DNA from: a virus
Reading direction: 5' to 3' (one strand)
Length of the DNA: 64,000 nucleotides
IMG/VR virus record: IMGVR_UViG_3300045955_000166
Location: 5,468 to 69,467 of that record
Below, piece by piece: positions 18,701 through 59,458 of the stretch; position 1 is the stretch's first letter, and each line of letters opens with the position of its first letter. The notes below the pieces were generated by a model. It did not search any database. It was not told the DNA's origin and saw only the letters and a program-made list of their open reading frames with translations. The position numbers and the translations under genes were made by a program.

Positions 18701-21547
18701 ACTATTCCAATAACTCCAATTCATATTGTACGAGAAGGAGTACACACGTCTCTTACAGTTGATTCATATTATACTAATTCAGGGGCTTCTAATCTTGTTT
18801 TTCGCAAAGCCTATGGAACGCTTGCAGCACCAACACGTTTAGGAGTTAATGCAAGTCTAGGGAATATTTCAGGATATGCTTGGGCACGTGATGCAGCTAA
18901 TACGGTTGATCAATTTGTATTACTTTCCCGATTAGTACAATCAGTTGACTCTGTGGATGCACAAGGACGTATGGGTGGACGCCAAACACTTTCTTTATCA
19001 CCTGGAGTTTCTGCTGCAATAGTTGAAATGTTTCGTTGGGATCAAGGTGGGAATTATCATATTGGTTCAACAACAACAGGAACAGGTCTTACACGTGGGC
19101 TTGTAATGGCCTCTGGTACTGCTCCTGCAACAAGTATTGCCGACCAAATACAAATGTGGGTAGCAGATCAACATGGTGTAGCAGGTGATGCTGCATTACA
19201 CATTATGCCTGAAATAACTACATTATATACTTTTGGTAATACATTTACTATGGGTTCATTAGGAACACCACCAGCAGTAGCAGGAGGTAACGTTCATTTA
19301 TATGGTTCGTCAATGGTATTAACTATTGATAGAAATGATACATCAATTACATTCCCACAAATTCAAATGCGAAAATCAAGAGGAACAGCAGATGTTCCAT
19401 TAGTAACAATAGAAGGTGATCGTACATTAGGTTTGTATGGATTAGCATATGTAAGAAATGCAGCAGATACTGCTGATGCATATCAAGCAGGAAGTTTAAT
19501 GATGTATAGAGCATCAAATTTTGATGCCCAAGGTAGATCTGGTGGGGATATTAGTTGGTGGACATCATCAGGAGTATCAGCAAGTATAAGCGAAAAAATG
19601 TATTTAAATCCAGCAGGACAATTAGGTTTAGGTCCTGGTTTAACATACGCAACAGTTCTTCCTTCTGGATCATTATTAAATGTAAGTAATTTAGATGTAA
19701 CAACAGGTAGTTTAACATTAGTATCTCAACGTGCAGCTATTGTATCTGGTAATGTTCTTAACGGTATTGAATTTTGGTCTAATGATACAAGTTATACTAC
19801 TCAACCAGGATACATAAGTGCATATTTGAGAGTATATGCAACAGAAGCCCATGCATCAGGTGCGATAGGTAGTCGTATGGTTTTTGCTACATCACTTATT
19901 GGTGGTGCATCTCCTTCTCCAAGATTAACAATTGATCCATGGGGTACAGTAATTATAGGTGCAGCAGCATCACCAGCAAGTATGACAGGTGGATTAGTTA
20001 TATCTTCTGGTGCTGCTCCTACTGCTTCTGTTGCTGATGGTGTGTTATTGTGGTCAGCAGATAAAGAAGGTGCAGCAGGTGACGCAGCATTGCACATACG
20101 TACTGAAGATGGATTTGTTCATGTACTGGGTAGTGAAATAGGTTTTAATGTAAGTGATCCTATTGGGACACTTAATGTTAATGGTTATAATAATTATTTT
20201 GAACGCCATGATGCAAATGCAGTAGGCTATAATACTATAAATAGAAAATCACGTGGAACAAGAGAAGTCCCTGTACGGCTTATAGCAGGAGATATTGTGT
20301 CATATTGGAGTTCCCAAGGCTATGTACGAAATGCAGGTAATACGGCTGATGTATGGACGTATATGACTCGTATTGATTCAGTAGTTCAATCGGTAGATGT
20401 AGAAGGTAGGGCAGGTGGAGTAATGATTTTTTATACGTGTCCACCTGTAACTGGTTCTCTTACTGAACGAATGCGTATTACTGAAAGTGGTTTTGTTGGG
20501 ATAGGTATATCTGTACCAGCAACAACACTTCATGTTGGAAATAGTGATGTAACTGATGCTGGATTAGCATTGACATCTCAACGTGTAGCTATTGCAGTAG
20601 ATAATGTGTTGAATGGAGTGGATTTTCATAGTAATGATACAAATTTAAGTATAAGTACACTAACAGCATATATACGTGCATATGCGAGTGAAACACATAC
20701 AGCGACAACACTAGGATCACGTATAACATTTGCAACAACAGCTATAGGTGCTGCTGCTCCTACTTTGCGTATGACATTGATGGATACTGGTGTATTAAGT
20801 ATGGGAACATGGACAGGACAAAAAATTAATTTATATGACTCAACAGTAAATAAATATGGTTTAGGTATTGGTAGTTCACAATTGCAGATTTATTCTCCTA
20901 ATGCTGCAACTACAAGAACAGAAATTGGTGGAATGTCAAATACAGATGGTGTAACATTTATTCCTGTTTTGCGTGTATTACCATCTTCTACAAGTATGGT
21001 GCTTGGTCCTGTTGGAGCAACAGCAGTAGGTACATCTGGTACGTATGTATTTGGTATTTCTACAGGAACACGTGCTACAACTTCTCCTACTGCTATGGTG
21101 CAAATGTGGACAGAAGATCAAGATGGTGCAAATACAGCAGCTTTACATGTCCGAAGTGAAGGAAACTGGATTACAAAAATTGGACAAGGAATTATTACAC
21201 GTGCAGCATATTTAACTTTAACAACATATACAACTGCTGCACCATATTCTCCTGTAGCATTAGAAGAATCAAATAGAACTTTTCTTGCAAGTAACACAAG
21301 TGCAATGACACAAGTGAGTTTGCCTGCTGCTGCTGTAGGATATGTATTTAAATTTATTGTAACAGCAGCACAAGGACTTCGTATACGTGCTTTTACTGGC
21401 GATACAATACGAATTGGATCAACAGTAACTGCTGCTGCTGGATACATTCAATCAACTACTCTTGGTGATTATATAGAACTTTTTGCTACAAGTTCAGGAG
21501 GATGGTATGCACGTTCACCAATACAAGGTTGGACAATAGGTGTATAA
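15704..21547 (+). CDS. Long tail fibre / receptor-binding protein with internal repeats
   Basis: 1947 aa, Gly/Thr/Ser/Ala-rich; repeated VGIGT and APTTSPVD.VQLW..D...LH.RTEDG units; N-terminal DALIAIETELG anchor. Confidence 0.85.
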   Translation: MGAIGSGTSTSYPVTLDTLLYVSPGGLSDYTNGPNPIADSQSRVDAEFMNDVIDALIAIETELGTSPSGVYGSVAERFDTIGGAGGGFPGASTDNAIVRWNGSTGTSLQDSVMIVSDTGNVEGIVDLTITRNLLIGGTAAGTLLDNGIVIALGVGPSTQPTNAVQLWAADRAGSPGKTSLHVRAEDGTQHVFGDRVGIGTVAPSEALEVVGGIKLGTTALLANGTIRFTGADIEGRINDSWVSMTAGSAGGTTSGIWTWTTQTVTPPPGQRIGVNNSVYDLATQMYITEVSANGTDSSILLDDLNVGDTIYIQDKIDSSKYVRYTVAGDLTDSGDYRTIPVTFVSTGVANISNNAEIYVQFNLLGIHGSGATNAVTIWTDQYTLSADAQLHYESTSNNFGLKATTFGTGAQGVLALALGNAPTTSPVDTVQLWAADRGATGGKTGLHIRTEDGTSHVFSDFVGLNNLTPLAELDVVGTQRITRNATSSSTLWNVLNVRVKGTTDSLSPGFGSYISFINENFSGASFEIARIAGSRGPTDTDGILTFYVANATVFAKTISIDKDANLRINMSSVGTGLTQGIVIGSGIAPTTSPADAVQLWSADRAATVGKASLHLRTEDGTSHVFGDRVGIGTLTPGFSLDVVGAINVSDPTNTRSNLGLGTASTPEFLRIGIGTPSTASAPLIFATGTVQKILLQGDSISTRYGFGLASLALQIFSPTTARIDLGGMSTVDGTTFTSNLSVHNTSGNIGIGTGTFGTGATKTLALFNGVAPTTSPVDTIQMWSADRNATAGKGSLHLRTEDGTSHVFGDRVGIGTTNPTVALDVIGAIKVSDISTTQTNLGIGTGSSTQFDRLGLGTAASADARLTFLAELGQKVLLYGDNIAVRYGMGLASGTYQIFSASNGTVDIGSMSAADGITFTNRLSIQGSNGNIGLGTKTYGTSAVRNFVLFAGTAPTTSPVDAVSLWTEDQGAVAGEAALTLRTETGIVHSFGTNIGFGTTIPITPIHIVREGVHTSLTVDSYYTNSGASNLVFRKAYGTLAAPTRLGVNASLGNISGYAWARDAANTVDQFVLLSRLVQSVDSVDAQGRMGGRQTLSLSPGVSAAIVEMFRWDQGGNYHIGSTTTGTGLTRGLVMASGTAPATSIADQIQMWVADQHGVAGDAALHIMPEITTLYTFGNTFTMGSLGTPPAVAGGNVHLYGSSMVLTIDRNDTSITFPQIQMRKSRGTADVPLVTIEGDRTLGLYGLAYVRNAADTADAYQAGSLMMYRASNFDAQGRSGGDISWWTSSGVSASISEKMYLNPAGQLGLGPGLTYATVLPSGSLLNVSNLDVTTGSLTLVSQRAAIVSGNVLNGIEFWSNDTSYTTQPGYISAYLRVYATEAHASGAIGSRMVFATSLIGGASPSPRLTIDPWGTVIIGAAASPASMTGGLVISSGAAPTASVADGVLLWSADKEGAAGDAALHIRTEDGFVHVLGSEIGFNVSDPIGTLNVNGYNNYFERHDANAVGYNTINRKSRGTREVPVRLIAGDIVSYWSSQGYVRNAGNTADVWTYMTRIDSVVQSVDVEGRAGGVMIFYTCPPVTGSLTERMRITESGFVGIGISVPATTLHVGNSDVTDAGLALTSQRVAIAVDNVLNGVDFHSNDTNLSISTLTAYIRAYASETHTATTLGSRITFATTAIGAAAPTLRMTLMDTGVLSMGTWTGQKINLYDSTVNKYGLGIGSSQLQIYSPNAATTRTEIGGMSNTDGVTFIPVLRVLPSSTSMVLGPVGATAVGTSGTYVFGISTGTRATTSPTAMVQMWTEDQDGANTAALHVRSEGNWITKIGQGIITRAAYLTLTTYTTAAPYSPVALEESNRTFLASNTSAMTQVSLPAAAVGYVFKFIVTAAQGLRIRAFTGDTIRIGSTVTAAAGYIQSTTLGDYIELFATSSGGWYARSPIQGWTIGV

Positions 21548-35190: not shown

Positions 35191-35739
35191 ATGCTCATTG
35201 AAGAAATCTGGCAAGACATACTTGGGTTTGTGGGATTCTACCAGATAAGTAATTATGGTAGAGCCAAGAGCTTAGAAAGATGTGATAGTAAAGGTAGGCA
35301 ATTAAAAGAAAAAATATTGAAGCCTAAAATAGATAGGAATGGGTATTTTTATGTTAGATTATCTAAAAATGGTAAATGGAAAAATTTTAGTATATCTCGT
35401 TTAGTGGCTTTACATTTTATTCCAAATCCAGAAAATAAAAAGGAAGTAAATCATTTTGATGGCAATAAATCTAATAACCATGAATTAAATTTACAATGGT
35501 GTACAAGATCTGAAAATTGTTTACATGCTTATAAATTCAGATTAAAAGATTATAAAGAAGAAAATAATCCAAATTCAAAATTAAATTGGGGTCAAGTAAA
35601 TATAATACGGGCAATGTTAAATGAAAAAAATGAAAAAGGTACAAAGAAATATACCCAAAAAAACATTGCTGACATTTTTAATGTATCGTCACATTTAATT
35701 CAGAAAATTAAATTAAATAAAATATGGAAATACACCTAA
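35191..35739 (+). CDS. NUMOD4-HNH homing endonuclease
   Basis: EIWQDI.G..G.YQISNYGR.KS; VALHFIPNP...VNHFDGNKSNN...NLQWCT.SEN..H. Confidence 0.92.
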   Translation: MLIEEIWQDILGFVGFYQISNYGRAKSLERCDSKGRQLKEKILKPKIDRNGYFYVRLSKNGKWKNFSISRLVALHFIPNPENKKEVNHFDGNKSNNHELNLQWCTRSENCLHAYKFRLKDYKEENNPNSKLNWGQVNIIRAMLNEKNEKGTKKYTQKNIADIFNVSSHLIQKIKLNKIWKYT

Positions 35740-40613: not shown

Positions 40614-40807
40614 TGAGTAAAGTACAATGTTTAGAATGTGGTGAAATTTTAGAATCAAAATATCGACATGATTTTCAACAATGTTCATGTCCTAATCAGA
40701 CCTTTGTTGATGGAGGATCTGCCTATATACGTTGTGGTGGGGTTGATTTAAATAAAATTAAAGTATTAAGTGGGAATAATAAATATGATGACGATAATGG
40801 AGTTTAA
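40613..40807 (+). CDS. Small Zn-ribbon phage protein
   Basis: CLECG.ILES..RHDF..CSC....VDGG..Y. Confidence 0.7.
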   Translation: MSKVQCLECGEILESKYRHDFQQCSCPNQTFVDGGSAYIRCGGVDLNKIKVLSGNNKYDDDNGV

Positions 40808-41237
40808 AGGTAAGTATAAATTTTTATCAAATTTTTTTCTCTGTAAAGTTGAATATGAAGATAAAATATATAAATCAGCCGAACACGCATATCAAGCATC
40901 AAAAACAGATGATGAATATTGGAGCACTATAATTGCTGAAGCAGATACGCCAAATAAAGCAAAACAATGTGGAAAAAAATGTCCATATATTCGTGAAGAT
41001 TGGGATGAAGTAAAAATAAATATTATGAAAAAAATTGTGTATAACAAGTTCATGCATAATGATAAATTGAAACAACAGTTAATTGCAACATCTCCTTCAA
41101 AACTCATTGAAGGAAATTACTGGCATGATAATTGGTGGGGTAGTTGTTTTTGTCAAAAATGTAAAAATATACAGGGAAGTAATATGTTAGGGTTAATTCT
41201 TATGGATATTAGGGAACAAAGTATTACTAAAGGATAA
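40785..41237 (+). CDS. NADAR family protein
   Basis: FLSNF, SAEHAYQASK, REDWDEVK..IM...KF, LIEGNYWHD.WWG, N.LG.ILM.IR. Confidence 0.92.
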   Translation: MMTIMEFKGKYKFLSNFFLCKVEYEDKIYKSAEHAYQASKTDDEYWSTIIAEADTPNKAKQCGKKCPYIREDWDEVKINIMKKIVYNKFMHNDKLKQQLIATSPSKLIEGNYWHDNWWGSCFCQKCKNIQGSNMLGLILMDIREQSITKG

Positions 41238-43100: not shown

Positions 43101-43631
43101 ATGTCTGTAAGTAAAAAAGAAATATGGAAAGATATTATTGGATATGAGAATTATTATCAAATAAGTAATTATGGAAATGTAAAAAGTTTAGAACGTTCTT
43201 TTCATTTAGGAGGAATAAGAAAAGAAAAAATTTTAAAATTCAGTATAAATACAAGTGGATATTTTCAGGTTACATTACAAAAAAATGGAGAAAAGAAAAA
43301 TTATCTTGTACACAAATTAGTAGCATTGCATTTTATACCTAATCCAGATAATAAATCTGAAATAAACCATAAAGACGGAAACAAATTAAATAATTTAATT
43401 AATAATTTAGAATGGTGTACAAGATCTGAAAATGCTTTACATGCTTTTCAATTAGGTTTAAGAAATAATAAAGAAGAAAAAAGTCCAAATAGGAAATTAA
43501 ATATTCAACAAGTTTTTGAAATACGAGAATTATTAAATAAAAAAATTCCACATAAAATAATTGCAGAAAAATATAAAGTTAGTCATCATTGTATAGCTAA
43601 TATAAATACAAAACGTACATGGAAATTTTAG
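43101..43631 (+). CDS. NUMOD4-HNH homing endonuclease
   Basis: EIWKDIIGYENYYQISNYGNVKS; VHKLVALHFIPNP; INHKDGNKLNN..NLEWCT. Confidence 0.92.
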   Translation: MSVSKKEIWKDIIGYENYYQISNYGNVKSLERSFHLGGIRKEKILKFSINTSGYFQVTLQKNGEKKNYLVHKLVALHFIPNPDNKSEINHKDGNKLNNLINNLEWCTRSENALHAFQLGLRNNKEEKSPNRKLNIQQVFEIRELLNKKIPHKIIAEKYKVSHHCIANINTKRTWKF

Positions 43632-43642
43632 GAGGAATTTTA

Positions 43643-44200
43643 ATGTTATTAAATGATAAAATGATTTGTGAGTATGTAAAAAACTATAATATGATTAATC
43701 CTTTTATTGATCATAAAGTAAAATCTGTCTTGAGTTATGGTCTTGATCCTGCTGGATATGTTATAACTTTACAGCCACATTTTTTGGTATTTTGCCCAAC
43801 AAAAGATTATATAATTGATTCATTACAACAAGATAATATGGATAATTATTATCTTATTGAAAATGATTATGTACATATTCCTCCATATGGACGTATATTA
43901 GGATTAGCTACAGAACGTTTGAAGTTACCTCTTAATGTGAGTGCTGAATGTTGGGGAAAATCATCTCTTGCTCGTATAGGAATAGTACCTCATATTACAC
44001 CTATTGAAGCAGGATATGAAGGGAATTTAACTATTGAAGTATCTAACTTTAACTCCTGTGGTGTAAAGTTATATGCTGGTGTTGGTATTGCTCAAGTACG
44101 TTTTCATTTACATGAGACTGTAGGAACAGCATATCAAGGAAAATATCAAGGCGCAAGTAACATAGAACTTAACAAATATCATGTTGAGGAGCATATATGA
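43643..44200 (+). CDS. dcd: dCTP deaminase
   Basis: LSYGL...GY, GKSSLARIGI, TPIEAGYEGNLTIE, GIAQV.F, YQGKYQ; SD AGGAGG. Confidence 0.92.
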   Translation: MLLNDKMICEYVKNYNMINPFIDHKVKSVLSYGLDPAGYVITLQPHFLVFCPTKDYIIDSLQQDNMDNYYLIENDYVHIPPYGRILGLATERLKLPLNVSAECWGKSSLARIGIVPHITPIEAGYEGNLTIEVSNFNSCGVKLYAGVGIAQVRFHLHETVGTAYQGKYQGASNIELNKYHVEEHI

Positions 44201-45212: not shown

Positions 45213-45803
45213 ATGAGAATAGGGTTAATGGGTGTATCTGCATGTGGTAAAACAACATTAGCATTATATTTGACACACAATAAAATAGTTGATGTGTCAT
45301 TTTTACCAAGTTGTGCAAGAAAAATTGCAGCAGAACATGGTTTTCAATCAAATGAAGATTTTATGAATGCATCAGTGGGTGATGTATATGCATGTCAAGA
45401 TCGTATGTTTACGTATAGAATGGAGCAAGAACAATATTTAAAAGAATTTGTATCAGATCGAACTTTACTTGATATTTTTATTCACACAATATTTCGTTGT
45501 CCATCAATGGTATCAGAATTTATGTATAAAACATACCAACGACAAGTATATACATCATTAAAAACATATGATTATTTATTTTATTTAGAATCTCCACCTA
45601 TTATAAAAGATGATGATCCACTTCGTATTACAGATCAATCAATTATTTATGTACTGCAAATATTATATTATGACTATATAATTATGTTTAATAATAAAGC
45701 GGTACAAGGTAAAAACAAACCCATATATTATCTACCATGGGACACCTTAGAAAATCGTGTAGAAAAAGTACAAGCGATACTAGGAGATCAAGAGGAAAAG
45801 TAA
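45213..45803 (+). CDS. P-loop kinase (NadR/AAA_28 or dNMP kinase-like)
   Basis: GVSACGKTTLA, FVSDRTLLD, YDYLFY, DD..R. Confidence 0.8.
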   Translation: MRIGLMGVSACGKTTLALYLTHNKIVDVSFLPSCARKIAAEHGFQSNEDFMNASVGDVYACQDRMFTYRMEQEQYLKEFVSDRTLLDIFIHTIFRCPSMVSEFMYKTYQRQVYTSLKTYDYLFYLESPPIIKDDDPLRITDQSIIYVLQILYYDYIIMFNNKAVQGKNKPIYYLPWDTLENRVEKVQAILGDQEEK

Positions 45804-45804
45804 C

Positions 45805-47622
45805 ATGTTAAAAACTCGTTTTTTCTATAAAAGTACGGATGAAAAATATAAAGAATTACCAGAACAAATCCATAAAGAAGTCTATGGAAATAAGGCAACA
45901 AATCTTTTTGGATTAAAGTCTATAGAGGATATCAATGTTCCTTTCTTTGTTGTTTTGCCGACAAATTTTTGCCGACTCTATAGAAAAGATAAAGTACAAG
46001 CAGAATTAAGACTTGTTGATGTTATTAAACAAGTCTTAGTACCACAATTTGGAAAAAAATTAGTATCTGTCAGATCTGGTGCTCCGTATTCTATGCCTGG
46101 ACTTATGAGTACCATTCTTAATGTTGGATTAACAGTACAGAATTTTAAAGAATGGATGGAAAAATTAGGACAAGAAGCAGCATTTAATTCTCTTTTCCGT
46201 TTTCGGAAAATGTTTGGTGAGACAGTTTTAGGATTGACATTACATAGTACCTATGTATTTAATGATCCTGTACAATCATTAAAAAATATAAAAGCCGAAT
46301 ATGAAGCACTTCAACAAAAAACTCCAGAGATGTTAGATCTAGGGAGTCAATTATTTTATGCTATAAAAGCTATATGGGAAAGTTGGGATTCTCCAGAAGC
46401 AGAAGCCTATAGAAAATTTAATCATTTAAAAGATGTAGGTACAGGTGTAATTATTCAAGAAATGGTGTTTGGCAACACCTTCAGAGGTTCTACAGGTGTC
46501 ATGTTTTCTTCTAATCTTGAAACAGGTGCAGATAGAATACAAGGAGAGTACATTTTTAATGCTCAAGGAGAAGATATTGTTTCAGGCCATGAGACACCTT
46601 TAAATATTGATACACTTTTAGAAACAGGATTTGAAGCATTATATAAACTTCTTGAAAAAAATGCCAAAAAAATAGAAAACCATTACAAATATCCACAAGA
46701 TATTGAATGGACATTATATAATAAAAGATTGTATTTCTTACAAACACGTGATGCAAAAATTCCATCAAGTACAAAAATAACAATGTTGTATGAAAACCTT
46801 ATTCTCCAAAAGAATCATATTCCATTAAAGCATTTAACTCTCCAAGATTTTATGTTAGATGTAAACAAACTCAGTATATCAAAAGATACACCATTTTTTA
46901 ATGGTAAAAGTGCATGTAATGGTGTAGCTATTGGGACATTAACATTTGATATAGACAAATGTACAGAGAACTCTATCTACTGTACAGAATATACCACAAC
47001 AGAAATGATTCCTGCTCTCTTAAAATGTAAAGGAATTATTGCTCTTACAGGTGGTATAACATCTCATGCAGCAGTATTAGCAAGAAGTTTACAAAAGCCA
47101 TGTTTATTAAATTTAGAAGCAGAATATAATGCCGAAAAAAATACATTGAGTACAAATGATTTATGTTTACTTGAAGGTGACACAATTTCTTTAGATAGTA
47201 CCAATGGAAAATTATATAAAGGAAAAGGGAAAATTGTAAAAGATACTGTATTATTAAAAAAAATAGATTCAATATGGACATTTATTTTTTCGTATTTCAA
47301 AGATCCATTAGTAATAACAAATCCATATATACCATTAGAAATGATAGGGAAAAATGTTTTATTAGATCCTTCATGGTTTATGTTTCCTTATGAAGAATTT
47401 TGTAAAAAAATAAAACCATTACAAAAAACGATACGGACATATTATGTTCATAGATCAAATAATATTCATCCATATTATTTAAAATTTGTTAATGAAGAAA
47501 TTGTTGACAAACACTTAGAGAACTATTATAATTTATTAGGAGCACATGATATTACACATGTAGAAAAAGGAATATTTACTCATGAAGAATTATTACGGGC
47601 AATGATAGCAACAATAATTTAA
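45805..47622 (+). CDS. Pyruvate phosphate dikinase-like protein lacking the pyruvate-binding TIM barrel
   Basis: GNKA.NL, LVSVRSGAPYSMPGLMSTILNVGL, IQEMVFGN, GVMFS, NAQGEDIVSG, QDIEWT..LYFLQTR, phospho-His motif GGITSHAAVLAR; only about 130 unrelated aa follow. Confidence 0.88.
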   Translation: MLKTRFFYKSTDEKYKELPEQIHKEVYGNKATNLFGLKSIEDINVPFFVVLPTNFCRLYRKDKVQAELRLVDVIKQVLVPQFGKKLVSVRSGAPYSMPGLMSTILNVGLTVQNFKEWMEKLGQEAAFNSLFRFRKMFGETVLGLTLHSTYVFNDPVQSLKNIKAEYEALQQKTPEMLDLGSQLFYAIKAIWESWDSPEAEAYRKFNHLKDVGTGVIIQEMVFGNTFRGSTGVMFSSNLETGADRIQGEYIFNAQGEDIVSGHETPLNIDTLLETGFEALYKLLEKNAKKIENHYKYPQDIEWTLYNKRLYFLQTRDAKIPSSTKITMLYENLILQKNHIPLKHLTLQDFMLDVNKLSISKDTPFFNGKSACNGVAIGTLTFDIDKCTENSIYCTEYTTTEMIPALLKCKGIIALTGGITSHAAVLARSLQKPCLLNLEAEYNAEKNTLSTNDLCLLEGDTISLDSTNGKLYKGKGKIVKDTVLLKKIDSIWTFIFSYFKDPLVITNPYIPLEMIGKNVLLDPSWFMFPYEEFCKKIKPLQKTIRTYYVHRSNNIHPYYLKFVNEEIVDKHLENYYNLLGAHDITHVEKGIFTHEELLRAMIATII

Positions 47623-47636
47623 TAAAGGAATAATAT

Positions 47637-47948
47637 ATGTCTCATACATTTGGAACACTAGGTATCTGTTTACCTGTTAATGATTCTTTTTTCGTAGGAG
47701 ATGTAAAATTTACTGTAACAGAGATACGACATAATTGGGTGAAAAAGCACTATACATGTGCTTTAACATATGCTGCTCAAGAAAAAGAAGGAGTTATAAT
47801 ACTCAAACAAAATCATGAGTTACCATTTTATAGTGAGTTACTGTCACCTGTATTTATGTGGATAGGCAAAAGAACAACTTCTTCTATTGCACACGTGTTC
47901 ATTAGCGCATATAAGAACGTTCCCATTAGGAGAGAGAATTATGTTTAA
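47637..47948 (+). CDS. CsrA/RsmA-like protein (extended)
   Basis: N-term LGICLPVNDSFFVGDVKFTVTEI and C-term AHVFISAYKNVPIRRENY resemble the two ends of CsrA. Confidence 0.5.
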   Translation: MSHTFGTLGICLPVNDSFFVGDVKFTVTEIRHNWVKKHYTCALTYAAQEKEGVIILKQNHELPFYSELLSPVFMWIGKRTTSSIAHVFISAYKNVPIRRENYV

Positions 47949-48447
47949 CCTGATTAAATTCTTTAATGGTTTCTTTCATCGCCCAACACAAGAACCAATA
48001 TATACAGAAGAAATCAAATGTGTTCCTTCATTTGATAATCTTCATTTATTTTCATCGAAAGGGATTATTATTGATGCTCCAGATCCTTACGTTATTATTG
48101 CTGGACCTTTTTATAAAAAGCCGAGTAACATAAGAGGATTATGTTTAGATGAAGAATTTTATACAATAAATAATGCAACAAATGATTGGTTATTTCCTAT
48201 ACCAGATTTTCAAGTACCAAAAGATAAGAGTGCTTTTAGACAGATTTTGGTAGACGTGTATCGTCATGCCAAAAAAGAAAAGATTGTTTATATAGGATGT
48301 AAAGGAGGATTTGGAAGAACAGGTATGGCTATTGCGTGTTTACTCAAGATGCATGGCAGTAAAAATCCTGTAAAAGAAGTTAGATTATTATATGATAAAA
48401 GAGCGGTTGAAACACCAGAACAAGAATCGTTTGTAACGAGATTTTAA
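47941..48447 (+). CDS. Protein tyrosine/dual-specificity phosphatase (CX5R)
   Basis: PIPDFQVP, IGCKGGFGRTG, RAVETPEQ..FV; SD AGGAG before ATG 47941. Confidence 0.9.
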   Translation: MFNLIKFFNGFFHRPTQEPIYTEEIKCVPSFDNLHLFSSKGIIIDAPDPYVIIAGPFYKKPSNIRGLCLDEEFYTINNATNDWLFPIPDFQVPKDKSAFRQILVDVYRHAKKEKIVYIGCKGGFGRTGMAIACLLKMHGSKNPVKEVRLLYDKRAVETPEQESFVTRF

Positions 48448-48458
48448 GGAAACAAATC

Positions 48459-49397
48459 ATGCCAATTATAGACTTGTATGTATCACCTGTACGCAAACCC
48501 TTCATGTACCCTGTTCTGGCAGAACGTTTATATGATTGGTATGATTTGTATAGTAAACATAAACGTTCTCCAGAAGCAGATATGTTTGCTTTTTATTATC
48601 TCAATCAATCTGTAAATGCTCTTGAAGGGTTATATGGGTTATATGGAAATCTCCAAGAAAAACAAGTTATTGTAGATGACTATATTACAACGACACTTGA
48701 TGTAGCAGAGCATATTGTTGTGTATCTTCTTTTTATATGTTTACGAGAAACACGACATGCATATAATAAAAATCCTAATTTTAAACATTGGGCAAATTTA
48801 CCAGAAAATAAAGAGACAGCAGCAGTAGTAATGTCTTTACGAAATACGGGACCTTTAAAAAGTATAGAGCAAGCTGTAAAATTTCTCCAAAAATCACAGT
48901 TGTCATTATGTACAATGCTTGAATCAATTTCTAAGTTATTTGTGTCAGGATGTTTTGGAATGTCATGTGGTGGAAAAAATTGGAAAGTTATTACAGATTT
49001 TACCTTAGATTATTTCAAAGGAAAACTCACAACAGAAATGTTTGTTGATTTGTGTTTTAACTTAGAGCACAATACCTCTGATATTTTTAATAAAGGCATT
49101 GTATTTACTGATAGTAGACCGTTTTTTAAGGCATTATTGGACATACAACATGAAGGAAAATTACCTGTTCTTATAAAATATGCCGAGAACATATTTAAAA
49201 ATTTAAATCAAAAAAAGGTTTATGAAGCTCTTGTAGAATATGAAACAATATTTCCGTTAGCTTCAGAGAATGAAGAATATCATTTGTTGAAGTACAACAT
49301 ACTTAAAGAGTTTATTTCCATTAATACAAGTCATAAAACGGTATTTCTCAAATTTCCTATAGCAAACGAGGTTTTCATTGAGAAAAGAAAAATGTAA
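48459..49397 (+). CDS. Protein of unknown function in the dikinase cluster
   Basis: 312 aa; distinctive ICLRETRH, GGKNW..I, D..F.LEHN...IFNK motifs. Confidence 0.65.
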   Translation: MPIIDLYVSPVRKPFMYPVLAERLYDWYDLYSKHKRSPEADMFAFYYLNQSVNALEGLYGLYGNLQEKQVIVDDYITTTLDVAEHIVVYLLFICLRETRHAYNKNPNFKHWANLPENKETAAVVMSLRNTGPLKSIEQAVKFLQKSQLSLCTMLESISKLFVSGCFGMSCGGKNWKVITDFTLDYFKGKLTTEMFVDLCFNLEHNTSDIFNKGIVFTDSRPFFKALLDIQHEGKLPVLIKYAENIFKNLNQKKVYEALVEYETIFPLASENEEYHLLKYNILKEFISINTSHKTVFLKFPIANEVFIEKRKM

Positions 49398-49869
49398 ACA
49401 TCCAGTTCTTATGATAAATGATACTTCGGTATATGGTGGTTCTATTTTTGATATACCGAAAAATGTTGCAGATCATTATTTTCTTTTAGATGGAGGTATT
49501 AAAACCAGTAATACCTCCTATGTTACCGTACATCATATACCAAATTGGGGAGTACCAAAGGATATCCATTCATTCAATCAATGTTTAGAAAAAGCTGCAA
49601 TATTTGTCAATGAAGGATGTCCTATATTTGTTGGATGTTTAGGTGGACATGGGAGAACAGGATTATTTTTATCTATTCTTTTATTTCAGTTGACAAAAGA
49701 CAGGTTGAGTTTGTATAATTTAAGAGAACAATATTGCTACAAAGCCGTAGAGACAACTACACAATATAAATTTCTCATGGACTATGGTTTAGAAATTTAT
49801 GCATTAGATTATAAGCGAGTAAAAGAAAAAGAAGAACAACGGAGAACATATGGAAAAAAGCCCACATAA
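49378..49869 (+). CDS. Second CX5R phosphatase
   Basis: IPNWGVP, VGCLGGHGRTG, YCYKAVETTTQ. Confidence 0.88.
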   Translation: MRKEKCKHPVLMINDTSVYGGSIFDIPKNVADHYFLLDGGIKTSNTSYVTVHHIPNWGVPKDIHSFNQCLEKAAIFVNEGCPIFVGCLGGHGRTGLFLSILLFQLTKDRLSLYNLREQYCYKAVETTTQYKFLMDYGLEIYALDYKRVKEKEEQRRTYGKKPT

Positions 49870-50188
49870 AATGTATGATATTGTTTTAGGAAAGACTGGA
49901 TCAAAATATATACTTATCGCTCAAAGTGCAGAATTAGATATCACAGTACGTATAACACCTGTGAATGTTACTTTTCATGCATATATACATGATACAGAAA
50001 ATGAAAATATTAAAAAATATATAGAAAAATTGGGATTTAATTATAATATTCAATATTGGTCAGGACGATTTATGGTAGGAACAAAATTAAATAAATTAAT
50101 TGTTATCGGAGGTATTTTATATGCATTGACAGATGTTGTACAATGGACAACTCCTTGGCCTGATTCAAAGTTATTATTTAGTGTATAA
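49850..50188 (+). CDS. Hypothetical protein
   Basis: SD GGAG; overlaps phosphatase stop; last gene before polymerase. Confidence 0.55.
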   Translation: MEKSPHKMYDIVLGKTGSKYILIAQSAELDITVRITPVNVTFHAYIHDTENENIKKYIEKLGFNYNIQYWSGRFMVGTKLNKLIVIGGILYALTDVVQWTTPWPDSKLLFSV

Positions 50189-50198
50189 GGGTTAGATT

Positions 50199-52457
50199 AT
50201 GTTTACTATATGGGGTTCTTCATTAGAAGGGTATTTATCATTCTTTAAAGGATTTGATTATCAGTTATATGATAAAGGTTCAGTACCTACTGATGGTTTG
50301 ATATTGGCATTAGGAAATCCAGCTTTACAAGTCCTAAAAGATGAAGGATTGATTGCCAAGAATAGAACACTTGCATCATTACAAGATGATATTTATGCAT
50401 ATGAGAATGCCTTTATATTGCCTACATATCATCCAGAGGAAATAGAAGAAGATTATACAAAAAACTTCGATTTGATATGGCGACTAAAACAAATAGCTCG
50501 GTATGAAACAACAGGAACTTTTAATGTTGAATTACCGCCTATGTCATGGGTATCAGATCTTCAAGAATTATATAAACATGCTAGTCAAAACAAATGGGTA
50601 GCATTTGATATAGAGACACAAGGTTCAGATCCTTTTAATGCAAACAACTATATCATTTGTTTCACATTTTCCTCTGGAGAATATTCGTGTGGAGTGTACA
50701 TTAACGGTCAATTACCAAAGAAAATTCATGAACAATTAACGTTCATATTAAATAATTTACTTTGGAAAGTAGAAGGTGCAAATCTCAAGTATGATTTGTT
50801 ATGGTTAAAAGTAAAATATGGAATCACGTGTATAAATTTTGCATGTGATACGACACTTATAGGTTCATTACTTGATGAAAATAGATCGAATAGTCTCACA
50901 TTACATTCTCGTATTTTTACTCCATGGGGAGGATATGATAGTCAACTCAATAAAAAATATGATAAGAATAATATGGCAGAAGTGCCAATAGAGGAATTAG
51001 GTCCTTATGCTATAGGTGATGCCATAGCAGAATACAAAGTAGGTGAAATATTTCGGCAACAATTAAAAGAAGAAGAACTTAAAATACGTAAAGTTCATAG
51101 GAGAGTTGGTCCCATGAACTTTTATCAAAAGCTACTCCATCCTATTGCCCGTACTTTTGAAGATATAGAGTACAGAGGTATTCATGTTGATCTCGAATAT
51201 CTAAATGCTTTAGAAATGGAAGTTGCATATGAAATATCTGAAGTGTCACAGAAAGCATTACAATTAATACCAAAATCTCTCCAAAGAAAATATGCAGATA
51301 ACTTGAGTATTACACGTGCTTCTTTGTTACAAGATTATCTGTTTACTCCTGAAGGATTAAATTTAGAACCATTTGTTGTAACACCAAAATCAAATAAACC
51401 ATCTACGTCATATAAAGATCATTTATATCAATTTAAAACACATCCAAAAGCAGGTAAATTTATTGAGTATCTTAAACGATATAGTGAATTGAATAAGATA
51501 CTTAGTACCTATATTGTAGGATTCAAAACCCATATACGAGAAGATGGTAAATTCCATCCATCAGTCATATTACATAGGGGAAGTTTTGAAGATGGGAGTA
51601 GGGGAGGTACAGTTACAGGTAGGATAGGATGGAAAAATCCTCCATTAATGGTGCTACCTTCGCATACAATAGATGCAGAACGTATACGAAAAATGTTTGT
51701 TGCTCCACCTGGATATATGATTGTAGGAGCAGATTTGAGTCAAGCAGAGTTACGATTGGTAGCCCATTTATCGAAAGATCCAGTAATGATGCAAGCATTC
51801 AAAGAAGGAAAAGATCTCCATAAGGTTACAGCATATAATACACTCGGAATTACTGAACAACAATTTTTTAATTTACCAATAGATAAACAGAAACATTATA
51901 GACAAGTAGCGAAGTCACAAAATTTTGGCCTTGTTTATGTTATGGGGTTTAGGGGGTTGCAAGTTTATGCAGAGAAATCCTATGGAGTAGCATTCTCATT
52001 AGATGATGCTCAGAAATACTATAATTCGTTTCATGCAACATATAAGAATATTAAACCATGGCATAAGAAATGTATCTCCCATGCCTATGAACATGGGTAT
52101 ATGGTGTCATTATTAGGACGTATACGACATCTCCCACAGATCTATTCTTCTATTGATAAGATAAGACAACAAGCAGAAAGAAGATCAACGAATGCTCCTG
52201 TACAAGCAGATGCAAGTGATTTGAATTTGTTGGCAGTATTAGAAATCAGTAAAGATCCTAACGTTCAAGTATGGGGTACGATTCATGATAGTATTTATGC
52301 CTATGCACCAGAGCATATAGCTATTGAATGTGCTCAAAAATTAAAATGGACTATGGAGAATTTGCCAACAGAGCAATTTGGATGTTCGTTGAGTGTACCT
52401 CTTGTGGCCGATGTTAAAGTGGGTTACAATCTTTCTGAAATGGAAGAAATAAAATAA
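50199..52457 (+). CDS. polA: Family A DNA polymerase with N-terminal UDG-like remnant and 3'-5' exonuclease
   Basis: LALGNPAL...PTYHP (SPO1-type N-domain); FDIET, NLKYD, YAIGD; motif A DLSQAELR, motif B RQVAKSQNFGLVY, motif C IHDS. Confidence 0.95.
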   Translation: MFTIWGSSLEGYLSFFKGFDYQLYDKGSVPTDGLILALGNPALQVLKDEGLIAKNRTLASLQDDIYAYENAFILPTYHPEEIEEDYTKNFDLIWRLKQIARYETTGTFNVELPPMSWVSDLQELYKHASQNKWVAFDIETQGSDPFNANNYIICFTFSSGEYSCGVYINGQLPKKIHEQLTFILNNLLWKVEGANLKYDLLWLKVKYGITCINFACDTTLIGSLLDENRSNSLTLHSRIFTPWGGYDSQLNKKYDKNNMAEVPIEELGPYAIGDAIAEYKVGEIFRQQLKEEELKIRKVHRRVGPMNFYQKLLHPIARTFEDIEYRGIHVDLEYLNALEMEVAYEISEVSQKALQLIPKSLQRKYADNLSITRASLLQDYLFTPEGLNLEPFVVTPKSNKPSTSYKDHLYQFKTHPKAGKFIEYLKRYSELNKILSTYIVGFKTHIREDGKFHPSVILHRGSFEDGSRGGTVTGRIGWKNPPLMVLPSHTIDAERIRKMFVAPPGYMIVGADLSQAELRLVAHLSKDPVMMQAFKEGKDLHKVTAYNTLGITEQQFFNLPIDKQKHYRQVAKSQNFGLVYVMGFRGLQVYAEKSYGVAFSLDDAQKYYNSFHATYKNIKPWHKKCISHAYEHGYMVSLLGRIRHLPQIYSSIDKIRQQAERRSTNAPVQADASDLNLLAVLEISKDPNVQVWGTIHDSIYAYAPEHIAIECAQKLKWTMENLPTEQFGCSLSVPLVADVKVGYNLSEMEEIK

Positions 52458-56822: not shown

Positions 56823-57350
56823 ATGAAAGTTATAAGTGGTGGACAGACAGGTGTTGACATTGGCGGTTTGCTTGCGGCAAGAGATGTAGGTTATAATACA
56901 GGTGGATATGCAGCTAAAGGATATCGTAATGAAAATGGATATAAAGACAAAAAATTACAACAAGAATTAGGATTAATAGATAACAAATTATCGTATAAGG
57001 AACGTACACAAGCAAATATCGAAGTGAGTGATGCAACAATTATTGTCGCTAAAAATTTAGCTAGTCCTGGTACAGCATTGACATTAAAATTCCTTACAGA
57101 GTTTTATCATAAACCTTATTTTGTTTTTCGTATGACGTATAAACAAGATGAATATAACATGCAGAAACATGCATTAATTTATTGGCTTTTATTACGTCAA
57201 TGTGATATACTTAATATAGGGGGCAATAGAGAGAGTGTAGCACCAGGCATACAAAAGTATATATACAATATGCTCACAAAAATATTTACTTTTTATGATG
57301 ATAAAATATGGGAAGAATTTATACATAAAAAATTAAGGAAAAAAGAATGA
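56823..57350 (+). CDS. SLOG family protein (cpYpsA / putative molybdenum carrier family)
   Basis: VISGGQTGVD.GGL.AA, RT..NI..SDAT, SPGT.LT, LNIGGNRES. Confidence 0.88.
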   Translation: MKVISGGQTGVDIGGLLAARDVGYNTGGYAAKGYRNENGYKDKKLQQELGLIDNKLSYKERTQANIEVSDATIIVAKNLASPGTALTLKFLTEFYHKPYFVFRMTYKQDEYNMQKHALIYWLLLRQCDILNIGGNRESVAPGIQKYIYNMLTKIFTFYDDKIWEEFIHKKLRKKE

Positions 57351-59031: not shown

Positions 59032-59040
59032 ATAATTGAA

Positions 59041-59065
59041 AGAGTGTCTACAAAGTAGACACTCT
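59041..59065 (+). terminator. Perfect hairpin AGAGTGTCTAC-AAA-GTAGACACTCT
   Basis: 11-bp perfect stem, intergenic, just upstream of the next SD; no U-tract. Confidence 0.55.
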
Positions 59066-59077
59066 CTAGGAAAACAT

Positions 59078-59458
59078 ATGAGAATTTATTTTGCAGCACG
59101 TTTTGATCATAATGAAACAATGAGAGCCTATAAATATTTTCTAAGTTTATATGCTCCAGAAATAGAAATAACATCACGATGGATACAATCACATCATAAT
59201 GTAGGAGAACAATTAGCATGTCTTGAAGATATAGAAGATATACGAAAAGCAGATGCCATTTTGTTTTTTAGCGAGAAAGCCACAGAATATATGAAAGGTG
59301 GTAGACATGTAGAATTTGGTATTGCTCTTGCATTAAGTAAAACAATATGGGTAATAGGTGATAAAGAAAACGTATTTCATTATCATCCATTTGTTCAACA
59401 TTTTAATAGTTTTGTAGAATGGTTTTTTCATATAAAGGATGAAAATGAGAAAGATTAG
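59078..59458 (+). CDS. Nucleoside 2-deoxyribosyltransferase-like protein
   Basis: IYFAARF, ED..DI..AD.IL.F, GGRHVEFG.ALAL.K. Confidence 0.8.
   Translation: MRIYFAARFDHNETMRAYKYFLSLYAPEIEITSRWIQSHHNVGEQLACLEDIEDIRKADAILFFSEKATEYMKGGRHVEFGIALALSKTIWVIGDKENVFHYHPFVQHFNSFVEWFFHIKDENEKD

Follow-up and report, generated by a model that had tools for sequence, protein, structure and literature searches.

What does a virus do with a PPDK-like protein encoded beside its DNA polymerase? The question is raised by a block of seven genes in the window, by which we mean the whole 64,000-nucleotide stretch analysed here (positions 5,468 to 69,467 of IMG/VR record IMGVR_UViG_3300045955_000166). Phage papers and GenBank label the dikinase of this block as PPDK, an enzyme of sugar metabolism. 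We put at roughly one half the probability that this is a conserved phage module with a two-subunit, ATP-dependent dikinase at its core, likely serving a nucleotide/DNA phosphorylation or activation step.

An ORF check recovered all seven genes of the first-pass annotation at 45213-50188, on the + strand and followed directly by the polymerase; they are separated by 1-14 nt or overlap by 8-62 nt. The block and its neighbors are, in order:

43619..44200, + strand: dCTP deaminase, upstream of the block (Pfam DCD 4.1e-23; TIGR02274 110.9 bits, above the cut-off of 92.8)
45213..45803, + strand: P-loop NMP/nucleoside-kinase-like protein, 196 aa (AAA_28 2.6e-6; phrog_2107 "thymidylate kinase" 1.9e-10)
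45805..47622, + strand: PPDK-derived dikinase core, 605 aa (PPDK_N 2.8e-32; PEP-utilizers 2.3e-14)
47065..47067, + strand: codon of the catalytic His421 in GGITSHAAV (from alignment and the predicted U312 interface)
47230..47619, + strand: C-terminal tail of the dikinase, residues 476-605 (predicted U312 docking region)
47637..47948, + strand: small protein, 103 aa, where relatives have their CsrA-like genes
47941..48447, + strand: PTP1, Cys-based phosphatase (PTP-SAK 3e-11; Tc-R-P 6e-7)
48459..49397, + strand: U312, predicted all-alpha protein, 312 aa (phrog_20946, unknown function, 3.4e-36)
49378..49869, + strand: PTP2, second Cys-based phosphatase, 163 aa (Y_phosphatase 3.1e-7)
49850..50188, + strand: short form of cl4, 112 aa (cl4 HMM; phrog_25950, unknown function)
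50199..52457, + strand: PolA, family A DNA polymerase with 3'-5' exonuclease (DNA_pol_A 6.5e-66; exonuclease 3.5e-11)

The PTP1 ORF is open from TTG 47887 (186 aa from there); ATG 47941 is the start used in the first-pass annotation. Other genes of the window code for NADAR, a cpYpsA SLOG protein, and a deoxyribosyltransferase-like protein.

The 605-aa protein descends from PPDK and has lost the PEP/pyruvate barrel. Domain mapping with Pfam finds the ATP-grasp domain (PPDK_N) and the swivelling phospho-His domain (the PEP-utilizers mobile domain, residues 388-468), both of which had been read from the sequence earlier, and no match to PEP-utilizers_C at E<=0.1. The barrel profile, PF02896, is missing from 15/15 family members (the window protein at E<=0.1, the 14 others at E<=1) and from all six frames of the 69,467-bp record, with a control that matched in 14/14 genomes. 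TIGR01828 aligns over profile positions 12-512 of 865 only (281.5 bits; cut-off 843), phrog_18609 matches at 7.7e-98 (positions 3-509 of 685), and full-length PPDKs share 33-38% identity across 64-80% of the query. After the swivel domain, the phage proteins have 115-232 aa vs about 360 in true PPDKs, and none of the barrel motifs of the latter aligns with them. The catalytic His is nonetheless invariant in 70/70 aligned phage and cellular sequences, and aligning the phage proteins with six true PPDKs shows no variation at the ATP-grasp and His residues. A missing barrel together with a retained catalytic His supports the earlier view that this is not a glycolytic gene but a dikinase for another acceptor. 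Several phage genome papers treat it as an auxiliary metabolic gene for a true PPDK, one that would raise glycolysis or gluconeogenesis in the host, a view backed by GenBank annotations and, in the available text of PMC12038007, by modelling and docking in favor of a PEP-binding barrel; given the absence of PF02896 from the 15 proteins and the record, the short post-swivel region, the unaligned barrel motifs, and a TIGR01828 score at one third of the cut-off, we find it scarcely credible.

Which protein, then, could take the place of the barrel? U312 has many relatives, 729 cluster representatives at E<=1e-3, in a family that carries no annotation; 14 positions are invariant, most of them polar. 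Pfam returned nothing convincing on 83 members (two single-member matches, best E 0.0035-0.0048), and a PDB sequence search returned no match. The AF2 model is confident and all-alpha (pLDDT 91.2); it matched no solved fold (Foldseek against the PDB, best E 0.83; VIA wide, best Z 4.7) and, in BFVD, its own family only. U312 is not markedly basic, with a family median pI of 8.1 and a value of 7.1 for the window protein.

Modelled together, the proteins encoded from 45805 and 48459 are predicted to dock through the dikinase tail and GGITSH loop, at ipSAE 0.83, 0.86, and 0.86 vs 0.06 for the best control; 116 of 157 solved complexes attain that ipSAE mark, as do 2 of 215 mismatched pairs. The runs have at least 92% of contacts in common, and partner pLDDT is at least 81. 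In the model, dikinase residues 506-508, 521-528, 555-570, and 594 contact U312 residues 4-20, 80, and 84, and invariant residues of U312 meet the GGITSH loop (416-421); of the 28 U312 positions that are invariant or nearly so, 8 fall in the predicted interface, vs 47 of all 312 residues. Sequence conservation of the tail is absent between dikinase subclades. Folded alone by AF2, the roughly 130-aa tail (476-605) reaches a pLDDT of 47; the dikinase chain reaches 85-87 with U312 vs 62-65 with unrelated partners. No similar complex has been solved because U312 has no PDB relative. It is the complex model (ipSAE 0.86 vs 0.06) that speaks for the earlier suggestion that the 312-aa ORF provides the acceptor in trans. 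U312 is accordingly named here the predicted acceptor subunit, and both its binding to the dikinase and the arrangement at the active site are predictions.

The gene neighborhood strongly supports the first-pass guess that the cluster is conserved but mis-annotated. Across 80 U312-anchored viral loci, counting only those with enough flank (for PolA, at least 5 kb downstream), the dikinase is present in 63/63, PTP2 in 78/78, cl4 in 77/77, PolA in 77/77, and PTP1 in 73/76; L062 and L063 are without PTP1, and phage J26 is without PTP2. The same core order recurs in 9 of 10 loci on bacterial genome contigs; seven of the 10 have the core complete as far as PolA, and another two break off at the contig edge. 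The flanks vary while PolA stays: most surveyed loci have terminase on one side of the block and portal on the other, and in the window phage it lies amid replication and nucleotide genes. Among phage matches sampled down the ranking rather than best-first, the closest to the window PolA is that of the module-bearing V-YDF132 (38.3%), followed by a match at 27.6%. The surveyed loci may represent one phage lineage, in which case the conserved order could reflect inheritance rather than functional coupling.

Membership of the cluster as first drawn holds for the dikinase, the phosphatases, and U312, but not for the P-loop kinase, whose gene occurs in 3/86 surveyed loci (L004-L006, all close relatives of the window). 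It is a lineage-specific addition outside the conserved core; its product weakly matches a PHROG annotated as NMN adenylyltransferase, and an informative PDB match was not found. The label "CsrA-like" for 47637-47948 is weakly supported and fits the relatives better than the window protein. Pfam CsrA matches 3 of 5 scanned small proteins of relatives (7e-7, 6e-5, and 1.5e-6), and GenBank annotates CsrA at the homologous position of phage J26; the 103-aa protein itself has no Pfam match at E<=0.1 and no PHROG match, and hhalign pairs it with its positional equivalents (the cl1 family) at a probability of 16% (E 0.0016). The 112-aa protein retains the C-terminal domain alone of cl4, which is about 283 aa elsewhere (cl4 HMM, whole-sequence E 1e-19; best domain E 4.6e-22, 65.4 bits, profile positions 161-263 of 271).

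Both proteins that flank U312 match PTP families and carry CX5R, as first annotated, with catalytic Cys codons at 48298-48300 (PTP1) and 49636-49638 (PTP2). Key residues of the PTP1 family are widely kept (Asp 70/75, Cys 72/75, Arg 72/75, Gln 73/75), as are those of the PTP2 family (Cys 77/77, Arg 76/77, Asp 74/77, and N-terminal Cys6 and His8 76/77), in which the general-acid Asp is replaced by Asn in the window (Asn56), L004, and L001. The solved chains nearest to PTP1 are PTPN4 (6.4e-6), SsoPTP (3.8e-5), and DUSP23 (3e-4); overall, the PTPs most resemble protein tyrosine/dual-specificity phosphatases, with a Q-loop-like Gln present. This resemblance counts against a DNA or nucleotide role, and the CsrA-like proteins suggest RNA regulation. 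The module could instead serve host takeover through protein phospho-signalling, with the truncated PPDK as an autophosphorylating histidine kinase, U312 as an adaptor or substrate-recruiting subunit, the PTPs as erasers of host or phage protein phosphorylation, and the CsrA-like proteins as reprogrammers of translation. Alongside the phosphatase relatives and CsrA matches, a precedent is VadK (Rv1127c), a barrel-less PPDK whose His is autophosphorylated and which associates with metabolic enzymes according to the available text of PMC13400623. We regard this as unlikely, because U312, with its 14 invariant, mostly polar residues, is predicted to meet the phospho-His loop in the manner of an active site and not of an adaptor; PolA linkage is strict (77/77); and the short-PPDK model NF004531 matches under its cut-off (219.8 vs 456 bits).

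The phosphatases bear on a second alternative, since they also match Pfam families from nucleotide-centred conflict systems (PTP-SAK 3e-11; PTP-NADK 0.0098). PPDK is known to form an E-His-PP intermediate, and the dikinase and U312 might phosphorylate or pyrophosphorylate a metabolite or defence signal outside DNA, such as an NAD/ADP-ribose-derived compound or a nucleotide second messenger, with the PTPs trimming products for counter-defence or pool restoration. The NADAR, SLOG, and deoxyribosyltransferase-like proteins fit such chemistry, as do the adjacent P-loop protein, with its AAA_28 and weak NMN adenylyltransferase matches, and the NMNAT that J26 encodes (PMC12038007, in the text available). 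These accessory genes are not shown to be universal, however, the P-loop kinase occurring in 3/86 loci, and the constant PolA neighbor is left without explanation; we rate this alternative slightly below signalling.

A further pointer to DNA comes from two carriers of the module published as having heavily modified DNA: in the available texts, DLP3 DNA resisted 15/15 restriction enzymes (PMC7326821) and DLP5 DNA was cut by only 4/36 (PMC5834331). The module may contribute to this resistance, a conjectural part given that sugar-nucleotide and glycosyltransferase genes are also present. Searches of 28 carrier genomes for TGT, ADDT, and PurZ-type enzymes each gave 0/28, the M6 positive control for ADDT matching at 2.3e-48. 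No nucleotide-precursor enzyme is universal among carriers (DCD, the family of the upstream dCTP deaminase, 8/25; ThyA-type hydroxymethylase 2/25; GT1 5/25), which weighs against the role in DNA or nucleotide metabolism. These counts bear on thymidine hypermodification as found in M6, ViI, and SP10, where a kinase places on 5-hydroxymethyl-dU in DNA a phosphate that an all-alpha transferase (ADDT/aGPT-Pplase) then replaces. The logic is alike, a kinase and an all-alpha enzyme of unsolved fold by the DNA polymerase, with M6 gp54 (HMUDK), gp55 (HMUDK_hel), and gp51 (ADDT) near polymerase gp62. Membership in such a pathway is nevertheless largely refuted, and we hold it very improbable: ADDT is absent from the carriers, the hydroxymethylase required for 5-hmdU is rare, the P-loop protein has no PF18748 match, and no U312 homology was detected (hhalign probabilities of 0.14 and 0.15 for the U312 profile against gp55 and gp51, single sequences that give low sensitivity).

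We therefore return to a trans-acceptor dikinase module whose acceptor most likely lies within DNA or nucleotide metabolism, a role favored because of the constant PolA neighbor, the replication and nucleotide gene setting, and the modified DNA of DLP3 and DLP5 together with the absence or rarity, among carriers, of the known hypermodification pathways searched for. In the PPDK family, ATP charges the catalytic His on the ATP-grasp domain, and His421 would be charged in the same way. In the model, U312 grips the divergent tail and offers an invariant polar pocket to the GGITSH loop; the swivel domain would deliver a phosphoryl (or pyrophosphoryl) group there, to be passed on to a non-pyruvate acceptor. 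The two catalytically intact Cys-phosphatases on either side of U312 may strip phosphate from the product or a pathway intermediate, with the CsrA-like small protein and the cl4 protein travelling along with these four. The module would be a step in an undescribed DNA modification or precursor pathway, and the block may underlie the corresponding DNA or nucleotide chemistry.

Finally, the module can be set beside known systems. With PPDK (TIGR01828) it shares the ATP-grasp and swivelling phospho-His domains and the invariant catalytic residues, but a short, divergent tail stands in for the TIM barrel and a separate protein is the predicted acceptor. Rifampin phosphotransferase, glucan water dikinase, and the prodigiosin ligase PigC/RedH use the same two-domain phosphoryl shuttle toward a non-pyruvate acceptor; their acceptor domain lies within one polypeptide, whereas U312 is separate, and the U312 model matched no solved structure of these families. 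NCBIfam models of such swapped-acceptor dikinases match the 605-aa protein weakly, across the shared domains, and far under their cut-offs (rifampin phosphotransferase, 35 vs 999 bits; PigC, 43 vs 1300). Phenylphosphate synthase and the PTS Enzyme I-HPr relay are superfamily members that pass phospho-His phosphate between separate polypeptides, with a different subunit split and unrelated partners. The M6 cluster (5-HMUDK, HMUDK_hel, and ADDT) likewise places a kinase and all-alpha enzymes of unsolved fold near a DNA polymerase, and there phosphorylation activates a group for substitution; no homology was detected, and its kinase is of P-loop type rather than dikinase type. VadK is another barrel-less PPDK derivative, with His autophosphorylation from ATP/Mg, and differs as a cellular regulator of the mycobacterial methylcitrate cycle for which the available text of PMC13400623 describes no dedicated partner gene. 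The phage dikinase has in addition an extra tail, the NF004531 score noted above, and co-conserved U312, PTPs, and PolA.

The window spans 64 kb of a 69,467-bp IMG/VR virus record (CheckV completeness 59%) and is phage sequence, with every ORF on the + strand and a G+C content of about 31%. Tail genes occupy its first 21 kb and are followed by replication and nucleotide genes: a DnaB-like helicase, primase, RecA, RNR, RuvC, ThyX, NADAR and dCTP deaminase. The seven tightly packed ORFs of the flagged block are present exactly as the first-pass annotation stated, and they are listed here with the adjacent polymerase, PolA.

45213-45803, + strand: P-loop protein (putative kinase), 196 aa; AAA_28 2.6e-6, phrog_2107 1.9e-10
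45805-47622, + strand: PPDK-derived protein (dikinase), 605 aa; PPDK_N 2.8e-32, PEP-utilizers mobile domain 2.3e-14
47637-47948, + strand: small protein, 103 aa; without family match in Pfam or PHROG
47941-48447, + strand: Cys-based phosphatase PTP1, 186 aa counted from TTG 47887; PTP-SAK 3e-11
48459-49397, + strand: U312, 312 aa; phrog_20946 (unknown function) 3.4e-36
49378-49869, + strand: Cys-based phosphatase PTP2, 163 aa; Y_phosphatase 3.1e-7
49850-50188, + strand: small protein, 112 aa; without family match in Pfam or PHROG, related to the conserved module protein cl4 by our own HMM
50199-52457, + strand: family A DNA polymerase (PolA), 752 aa; DNA_pol_A 6.5e-66

The block had zero DNA matches in a blastn search of 50,697 phage records. 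Neither the promoter scan (57 promoter-like sites, 64.9 expected) nor the terminator scan (4 terminator-like sites, 2.3 expected) gives an operon boundary, and a PDB search with the P-loop kinase returned nothing informative.

Elsewhere in the window, a PhoH-like ATPase (10995-11702; 5e-55) lies amid the tail-region genes. A 1,947-aa ORF without a Pfam match (15704-21547) coincides with the sole stretch of raised G+C (0.37-0.39 versus about 0.31) and probably encodes a tail fibre or a protein for host recognition. Three homing-endonuclease-type genes (1781-2584, 35191-35739 and 43101-43631) comprise one LAGLIDADG gene within the tail genes and two NUMOD4+HNH_3 genes; one HNH gene overlaps the start of the dCTP deaminase gene. 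NADAR (40770-41237; 9.4e-28), a circularly permuted YpsA SLOG protein (56823-57350; 6.3e-29) and a nucleoside 2-deoxyribosyltransferase-like protein with a weak match (59036-59458; 6.9e-5) form a nucleotide/ADP-ribose-related set with a possible role in counter-defence.

Judged by its domains, the 605-aa protein descends from PPDK but cannot itself be one. Over its first ~480 residues it shares 33-38% identity with genuine full-length PPDKs and has both the N-terminal nucleotide-binding ATP-grasp domain (PF01326, 2.8e-32) and the swivelling domain with the catalytic His in GGxTSHAA (PF00391, 2.3e-14). When 64 phage-type proteins and six true PPDKs are aligned jointly, the ATP-site residues R90, E301, Q313 and R315 are invariant, as is His421, and the T-[S/C/A]-H-A-A motif is present in 70/70 sequences. 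The PEP/pyruvate barrel (PF02896) is absent from the window protein at E<=0.1, from all 14 other family members at E<=1 and from six frames of the 69,467-bp record, in a search whose control was positive in 14/14 genomes; none of the true-PPDK barrel motifs aligns with the phage family. The whole-protein profile TIGR01828 scores 281.5 bits against a cut-off of 843.45 and covers only positions 12-512 of 865. Membership in PPDK (EC 2.7.9.1) thus fails on the barrel and on the score, and the earlier reading that this is not a glycolytic gene is supported. The short-PPDK/VadK-like profile NF004531 is also below its cut-off (219.8 bits versus 456). Rifampin phosphotransferase (NF041857) matches over 34 residues only, with 35.2 bits against a cut-off of 999.

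The region past the swivel domain is 115-232 residues long in the phage family versus about 360 in true PPDKs, and by BLAST these tails sort into mutually unrelated groups, with 31 members in one, 15 in another, 3 in a third and so forth. Modelled alone with AF2 from a five-sequence alignment, the window's C-terminal tail reached a pLDDT of 47, too poor for a fold search.

That the acceptor is supplied in trans by U312, as proposed earlier, is supported by complex prediction. Dikinase residues 340-605 and U312, each with its own alignment, gave ipSAE values of 0.83, 0.86 and 0.86, against 0.06 for the best control. Of the solved complexes, 116 of 157 attained this ipSAE mark, as did 2 of 215 mismatched pairs; both counts are only rough here given the use of own alignments. 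At least 92% of contacts were common to the runs, partner pLDDT was at least 81, and confidence in the dikinase fragment was 85-87 with U312 versus 62-65 with unrelated partners. The score is unlikely to reflect a structure already known to the predictor, as U312 lacks any solved relative. The prediction supports dikinase-U312 binding.

In the predicted complex, dikinase tail residues 506-508, 521-528 and 555-570 grip U312 residues 4-20, and both regions are variable. The GGITSH loop (416-421, including His421) and residues 424-430 oppose U312 residues 46, 188-205 and 230-235. The 47 interface residues of U312 include eight of its 28 invariant or near-invariant positions: Y46, G188, E193, D197, L202, N205, Q230 and G233. 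Such a predicted interface would be expected were U312 to provide, in trans, the acceptor site otherwise formed by the PPDK barrel.

U312 itself belongs to a large, enzyme-like family that lacks annotation and whose fold is unmatched. A phmmer search of 1.84 billion cluster representatives returned 729 relatives at E<=1e-3, 433 of them at E<=1e-10. An alignment of 83 members has 14 invariant and 14 near-invariant positions, and many conserved positions are polar (Y46, Y89, R96, E97, R99, H100, W175, E193, D197, H204, N205, K212, D228, Q230). Pfam yielded nothing convincing among the 83, with two single-member matches (SQAPI and TreT_GT1, E 0.0035-0.0048), and the family profile had no match among PDB sequences at E<=10. 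The AF2 model is confident (pLDDT 91.2, pTM 0.88) and consists of helices alone; its best Foldseek E against the PDB is 0.83, and a VIA-align wide search of 48,161 chains peaked at Z 4.7, with a few unconvincing ferritin-like rows at Z 3.6-4.3. BFVD returned four proteins only, all of the same family, and the ESM Atlas gave no usable lead for either U312 or cl4. Domain fusions were uninformative among 12 longer homologues, and the lack of any fused form of at least 761 aa is weak evidence.

Both phosphatases look active from their residues. Their CX5R loops (PTP1 GCKGGFGRTG, PTP2 GCLGGHGRTG) are those of Cys-based phosphatases, and among solved structures they come closest to small archaeal/dual-specificity phosphatases and to classical protein tyrosine phosphatases (E 6e-6 to 3e-4). 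Across relatives, the catalytic Cys is conserved in 72/75 PTP1 and 77/77 PTP2 sequences, the Arg in 72/75 and 76/77, the general-acid Asp (Asp107 in the window PTP1) in 70/75 and 74/77, and the C-terminal Gln in 73/75 and 76/77. An N-terminal Cys-x-His is a further feature of PTP2, present in 76/77. In three of the 77, namely the window (49378-49869), its close relative L004 and Vibrio phage V-YDF132 (L001), PTP2 has Asn (Asn56 in the window) instead of the general-acid Asp, a change that would slow hydrolysis or trap substrate.

CsrA (PF02599) has no match to the 103-aa protein at 47637-47948 at E<=0.1, and hhalign relates this protein to the CsrA-like family cl1 of other loci with a probability of 16%. 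When five small proteins of relatives (four cl1, one from locus L090) were scored with the CsrA profile (cut-off 27), three gave 29.5, 23.3 and 28.5 bits and two had no match. Overall, the first-pass observation and most of its interpretation hold. The 112-aa ORF corresponds to the C-terminal domain of cl4, a conserved ~283-aa module protein (whole-sequence E 1e-19; best domain 4.6e-22, profile positions 161-263 of 271). Scans of cl1 and four other conserved small-protein families (cl7, cl8, cl11, cl12) against PHROG and NCBIfam found nothing. In one cl4 protein (L086:9763-10737), the C-terminal domain of ribosomal L7/L12 (Pfam 3.9e-9; TIGR00855 8e-7) is inserted ahead of the conserved C-terminal domain.

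The module is widespread within one large siphophage group. By tblastn, the dikinase is found in 56 of 50,697 phage records (Vibrio 34, "Bacteriophage" 8, Listeria 4, Stenotrophomonas 4, Rhizobium 2, Bacillus 2, Enterococcus 1, Rhodobacter 1) and U312 in 40, exclusively phages of Vibrio, Stenotrophomonas, Rhizobium and Rhodobacter. An IMG/VR search from U312 alone gave 150 relatives, from which 80 loci with 73 distinct U312 sequences were retained. Among loci with enough flank to be counted, and with HMMs made from the same loci so that membership is partly circular, the dikinase is present in 63/63 (72/80 overall), cl1 in 70/73, PTP1 in 73/76 (absent from L035, L062 and L063), PTP2 in 78/78, cl4 in 77/77, PolA in 77/77, cl7 in 69/77 and cl8 in 63/77. 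The cluster is thus conserved, as had been suspected. Where the first phmmer survey had no dikinase match (11 loci), U312 is preceded by no more than 2,711 nt of sequence.

The typical order is terminase, cl12, dikinase, one or two CsrA-like genes, PTP1, U312, PTP2, cl4, cl8, cl7, PolA and portal. Genomes of 185,579 species contain ten module loci; the order from dikinase to U312 is the same in 9/10 and the full core through PolA in 7/10, with L089 and L095 reaching the contig end before the full core. The P-loop kinase occurs in 3/86 loci, the window's close relatives only. The window keeps the PolA adjacency though its flanks differ, with no terminase or portal HMM match in the window. Phage J26 (GenBank) has the dikinase, "CsrA", PTP1, U312, cl4 and PolA and lacks PTP2. 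All surveyed loci may represent one lineage with inherited gene order.

In the last polymerase motif of module-linked PolA, the residue after the conserved His-Asp is variable (Ser in the window); other family A polymerases typically have Glu there. In a Thalassobaculaceae MAG chromosome (L090:4609-8921), a module variant adjoins an integrase. Its 629-aa protein joins the phospho-His swivel domain (2.8e-22) to FAD_binding_3 (1.3e-37), which replaces the ATP-grasp; a CsrA-like protein, PTP1 and U312 come next, without PTP2, cl4 or module PolA. A real swap of domains, decay of a prophage or chimeric assembly could each account for this variant.

The module is also systematically mis-annotated, as the first-pass annotation had suggested. 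J26 lists cl4 (E 2.2e-24) as "pyruvate decarboxylase" and U312 (E 9e-77) as "putative membrane protein". The "thymidylate synthase" of module carrier DLP3 (DLP3_141, L002:11596-12372) and PHROG family phrog_17568 are PTP2, a PTP family, and the phrog_17568 label has spread into the GenBank records of DLP3 and a second carrier, DLP5. One paper likewise labels the PTP "thymidylate synthase", cl4 "pyruvate decarboxylase" and U312 "membrane protein". The present data show that the PPDK, thymidylate synthase, pyruvate decarboxylase and membrane protein labels are wrong. In the openly accessible literature searched, phage "PPDK" is treated solely as an auxiliary metabolic gene, and no paper joins dikinase, bacteriophage and hypermodified DNA. 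One paper argues that phage PPDK has the PEP-binding barrel (PMC12038007).

We propose that the module genes are one machine, in which a trans-acceptor dikinase of known catalytic type would act with an acceptor subunit of new fold and dedicated phosphatases. To the fuller statement, that this is a two-subunit trans-acceptor dikinase module whose acceptor lies in DNA/nucleotide metabolism, we assign a probability of roughly one half; the two-subunit part is more likely than this and the DNA/nucleotide acceptor less so. Towards such an acceptor, PolA is a constant neighbour of the module, kept in the window despite the different flanks, and the window block lies beside dCTP deaminase (TIGR02274, above cut-off) and other nucleotide genes. 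The restriction resistance of DLP3 and DLP5 DNA and the lack of the tested hypermodification toolkits in carriers, both detailed below, point the same way. Against it, no precursor enzyme is universal in carriers (DCD 8/25, GT1 5/25), the PTPs look like protein phosphatases, U312 lacks a basic character, and shared ancestry of the loci may account for their linkage.

A more specific and rather doubtful proposal takes the dikinase, U312 and the PTPs as the core biosynthetic genes of a phage hypermodification of DNA (or dNTPs) that has yet to be described. A canonical nucleotide (or base) would be activated on U312, as a new-fold enzyme, by the phospho-His dikinase; the phosphatases would complete the product, and the family A polymerase linked to the block would have co-evolved to handle it. 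DLP3 DNA is reported as resistant to 15/15 restriction enzymes (PMC7326821), and DLP5 DNA, cut by only 4/36, is termed "heavily modified" by its authors (PMC5834331). If true, the hypermodification proposal would explain this resistance to most restriction enzymes through the module, despite the absence of the tested toolkits. Among carriers, DpdA/TGT (PF01702) and PurZ-type adenylosuccinate synthetase (PF00709), which mark the 7-deazaguanine and 2-aminoadenine DNA systems, are found in 0/28 each, with controls positive in 14/14 genomes. Thymidine hypermodification (5-HMUDK + ADDT) is rejected on ADDT/aGPT-Pplase (PF18724; 0/28, positive control M6 2.3e-48) and on ThyA-type dUMP hydroxymethylase (PF00303, the source of 5-hmdU; only 2/25). 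The window carries ThyX rather than ThyA.

Sequenced phages that carry a gene labelled in papers as a glycolytic "PPDK" AMG number at least 56, and metagenomic relatives with the gene run into the hundreds. The acceptor, once found, would give the dikinase superfamily a new reaction, and could also reveal the heavy DNA modification of Delepquintavirus phages, which is relevant to restriction evasion, phage therapy candidates and enzyme tools.

Finally, the dikinase-U312 system shares its catalytic principle with the PEP-utilising/dikinase superfamily. Its nearest precedents include split systems such as phenylphosphate synthase and the PTS relay. Another is VadK, like the phage 605-aa protein a truncated PPDK, described as autophosphorylating its His in an ATP/Mg-dependent manner (PMC13400623); the phage protein may do likewise. 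Rifampin phosphotransferase, glucan water dikinase and PigC, further precedents, swap the acceptor domain and have weak, sub-threshold matches to the 605-aa protein. The phage protein is ordered ATP-grasp, His domain, tail, whereas in rifampin phosphotransferase the His domain is C-terminal and is separated from the ATP-grasp by a rifampin-binding domain. By hhalign, the U312 profile matches HMUDK_hel (gp55) and ADDT (gp51) of phage M6 with a probability of only 0.14 and 0.15, in low-sensitivity comparisons with single sequences; the M6 thymidine-hypermodification cluster is like the module in logic and unlike it in sequence.
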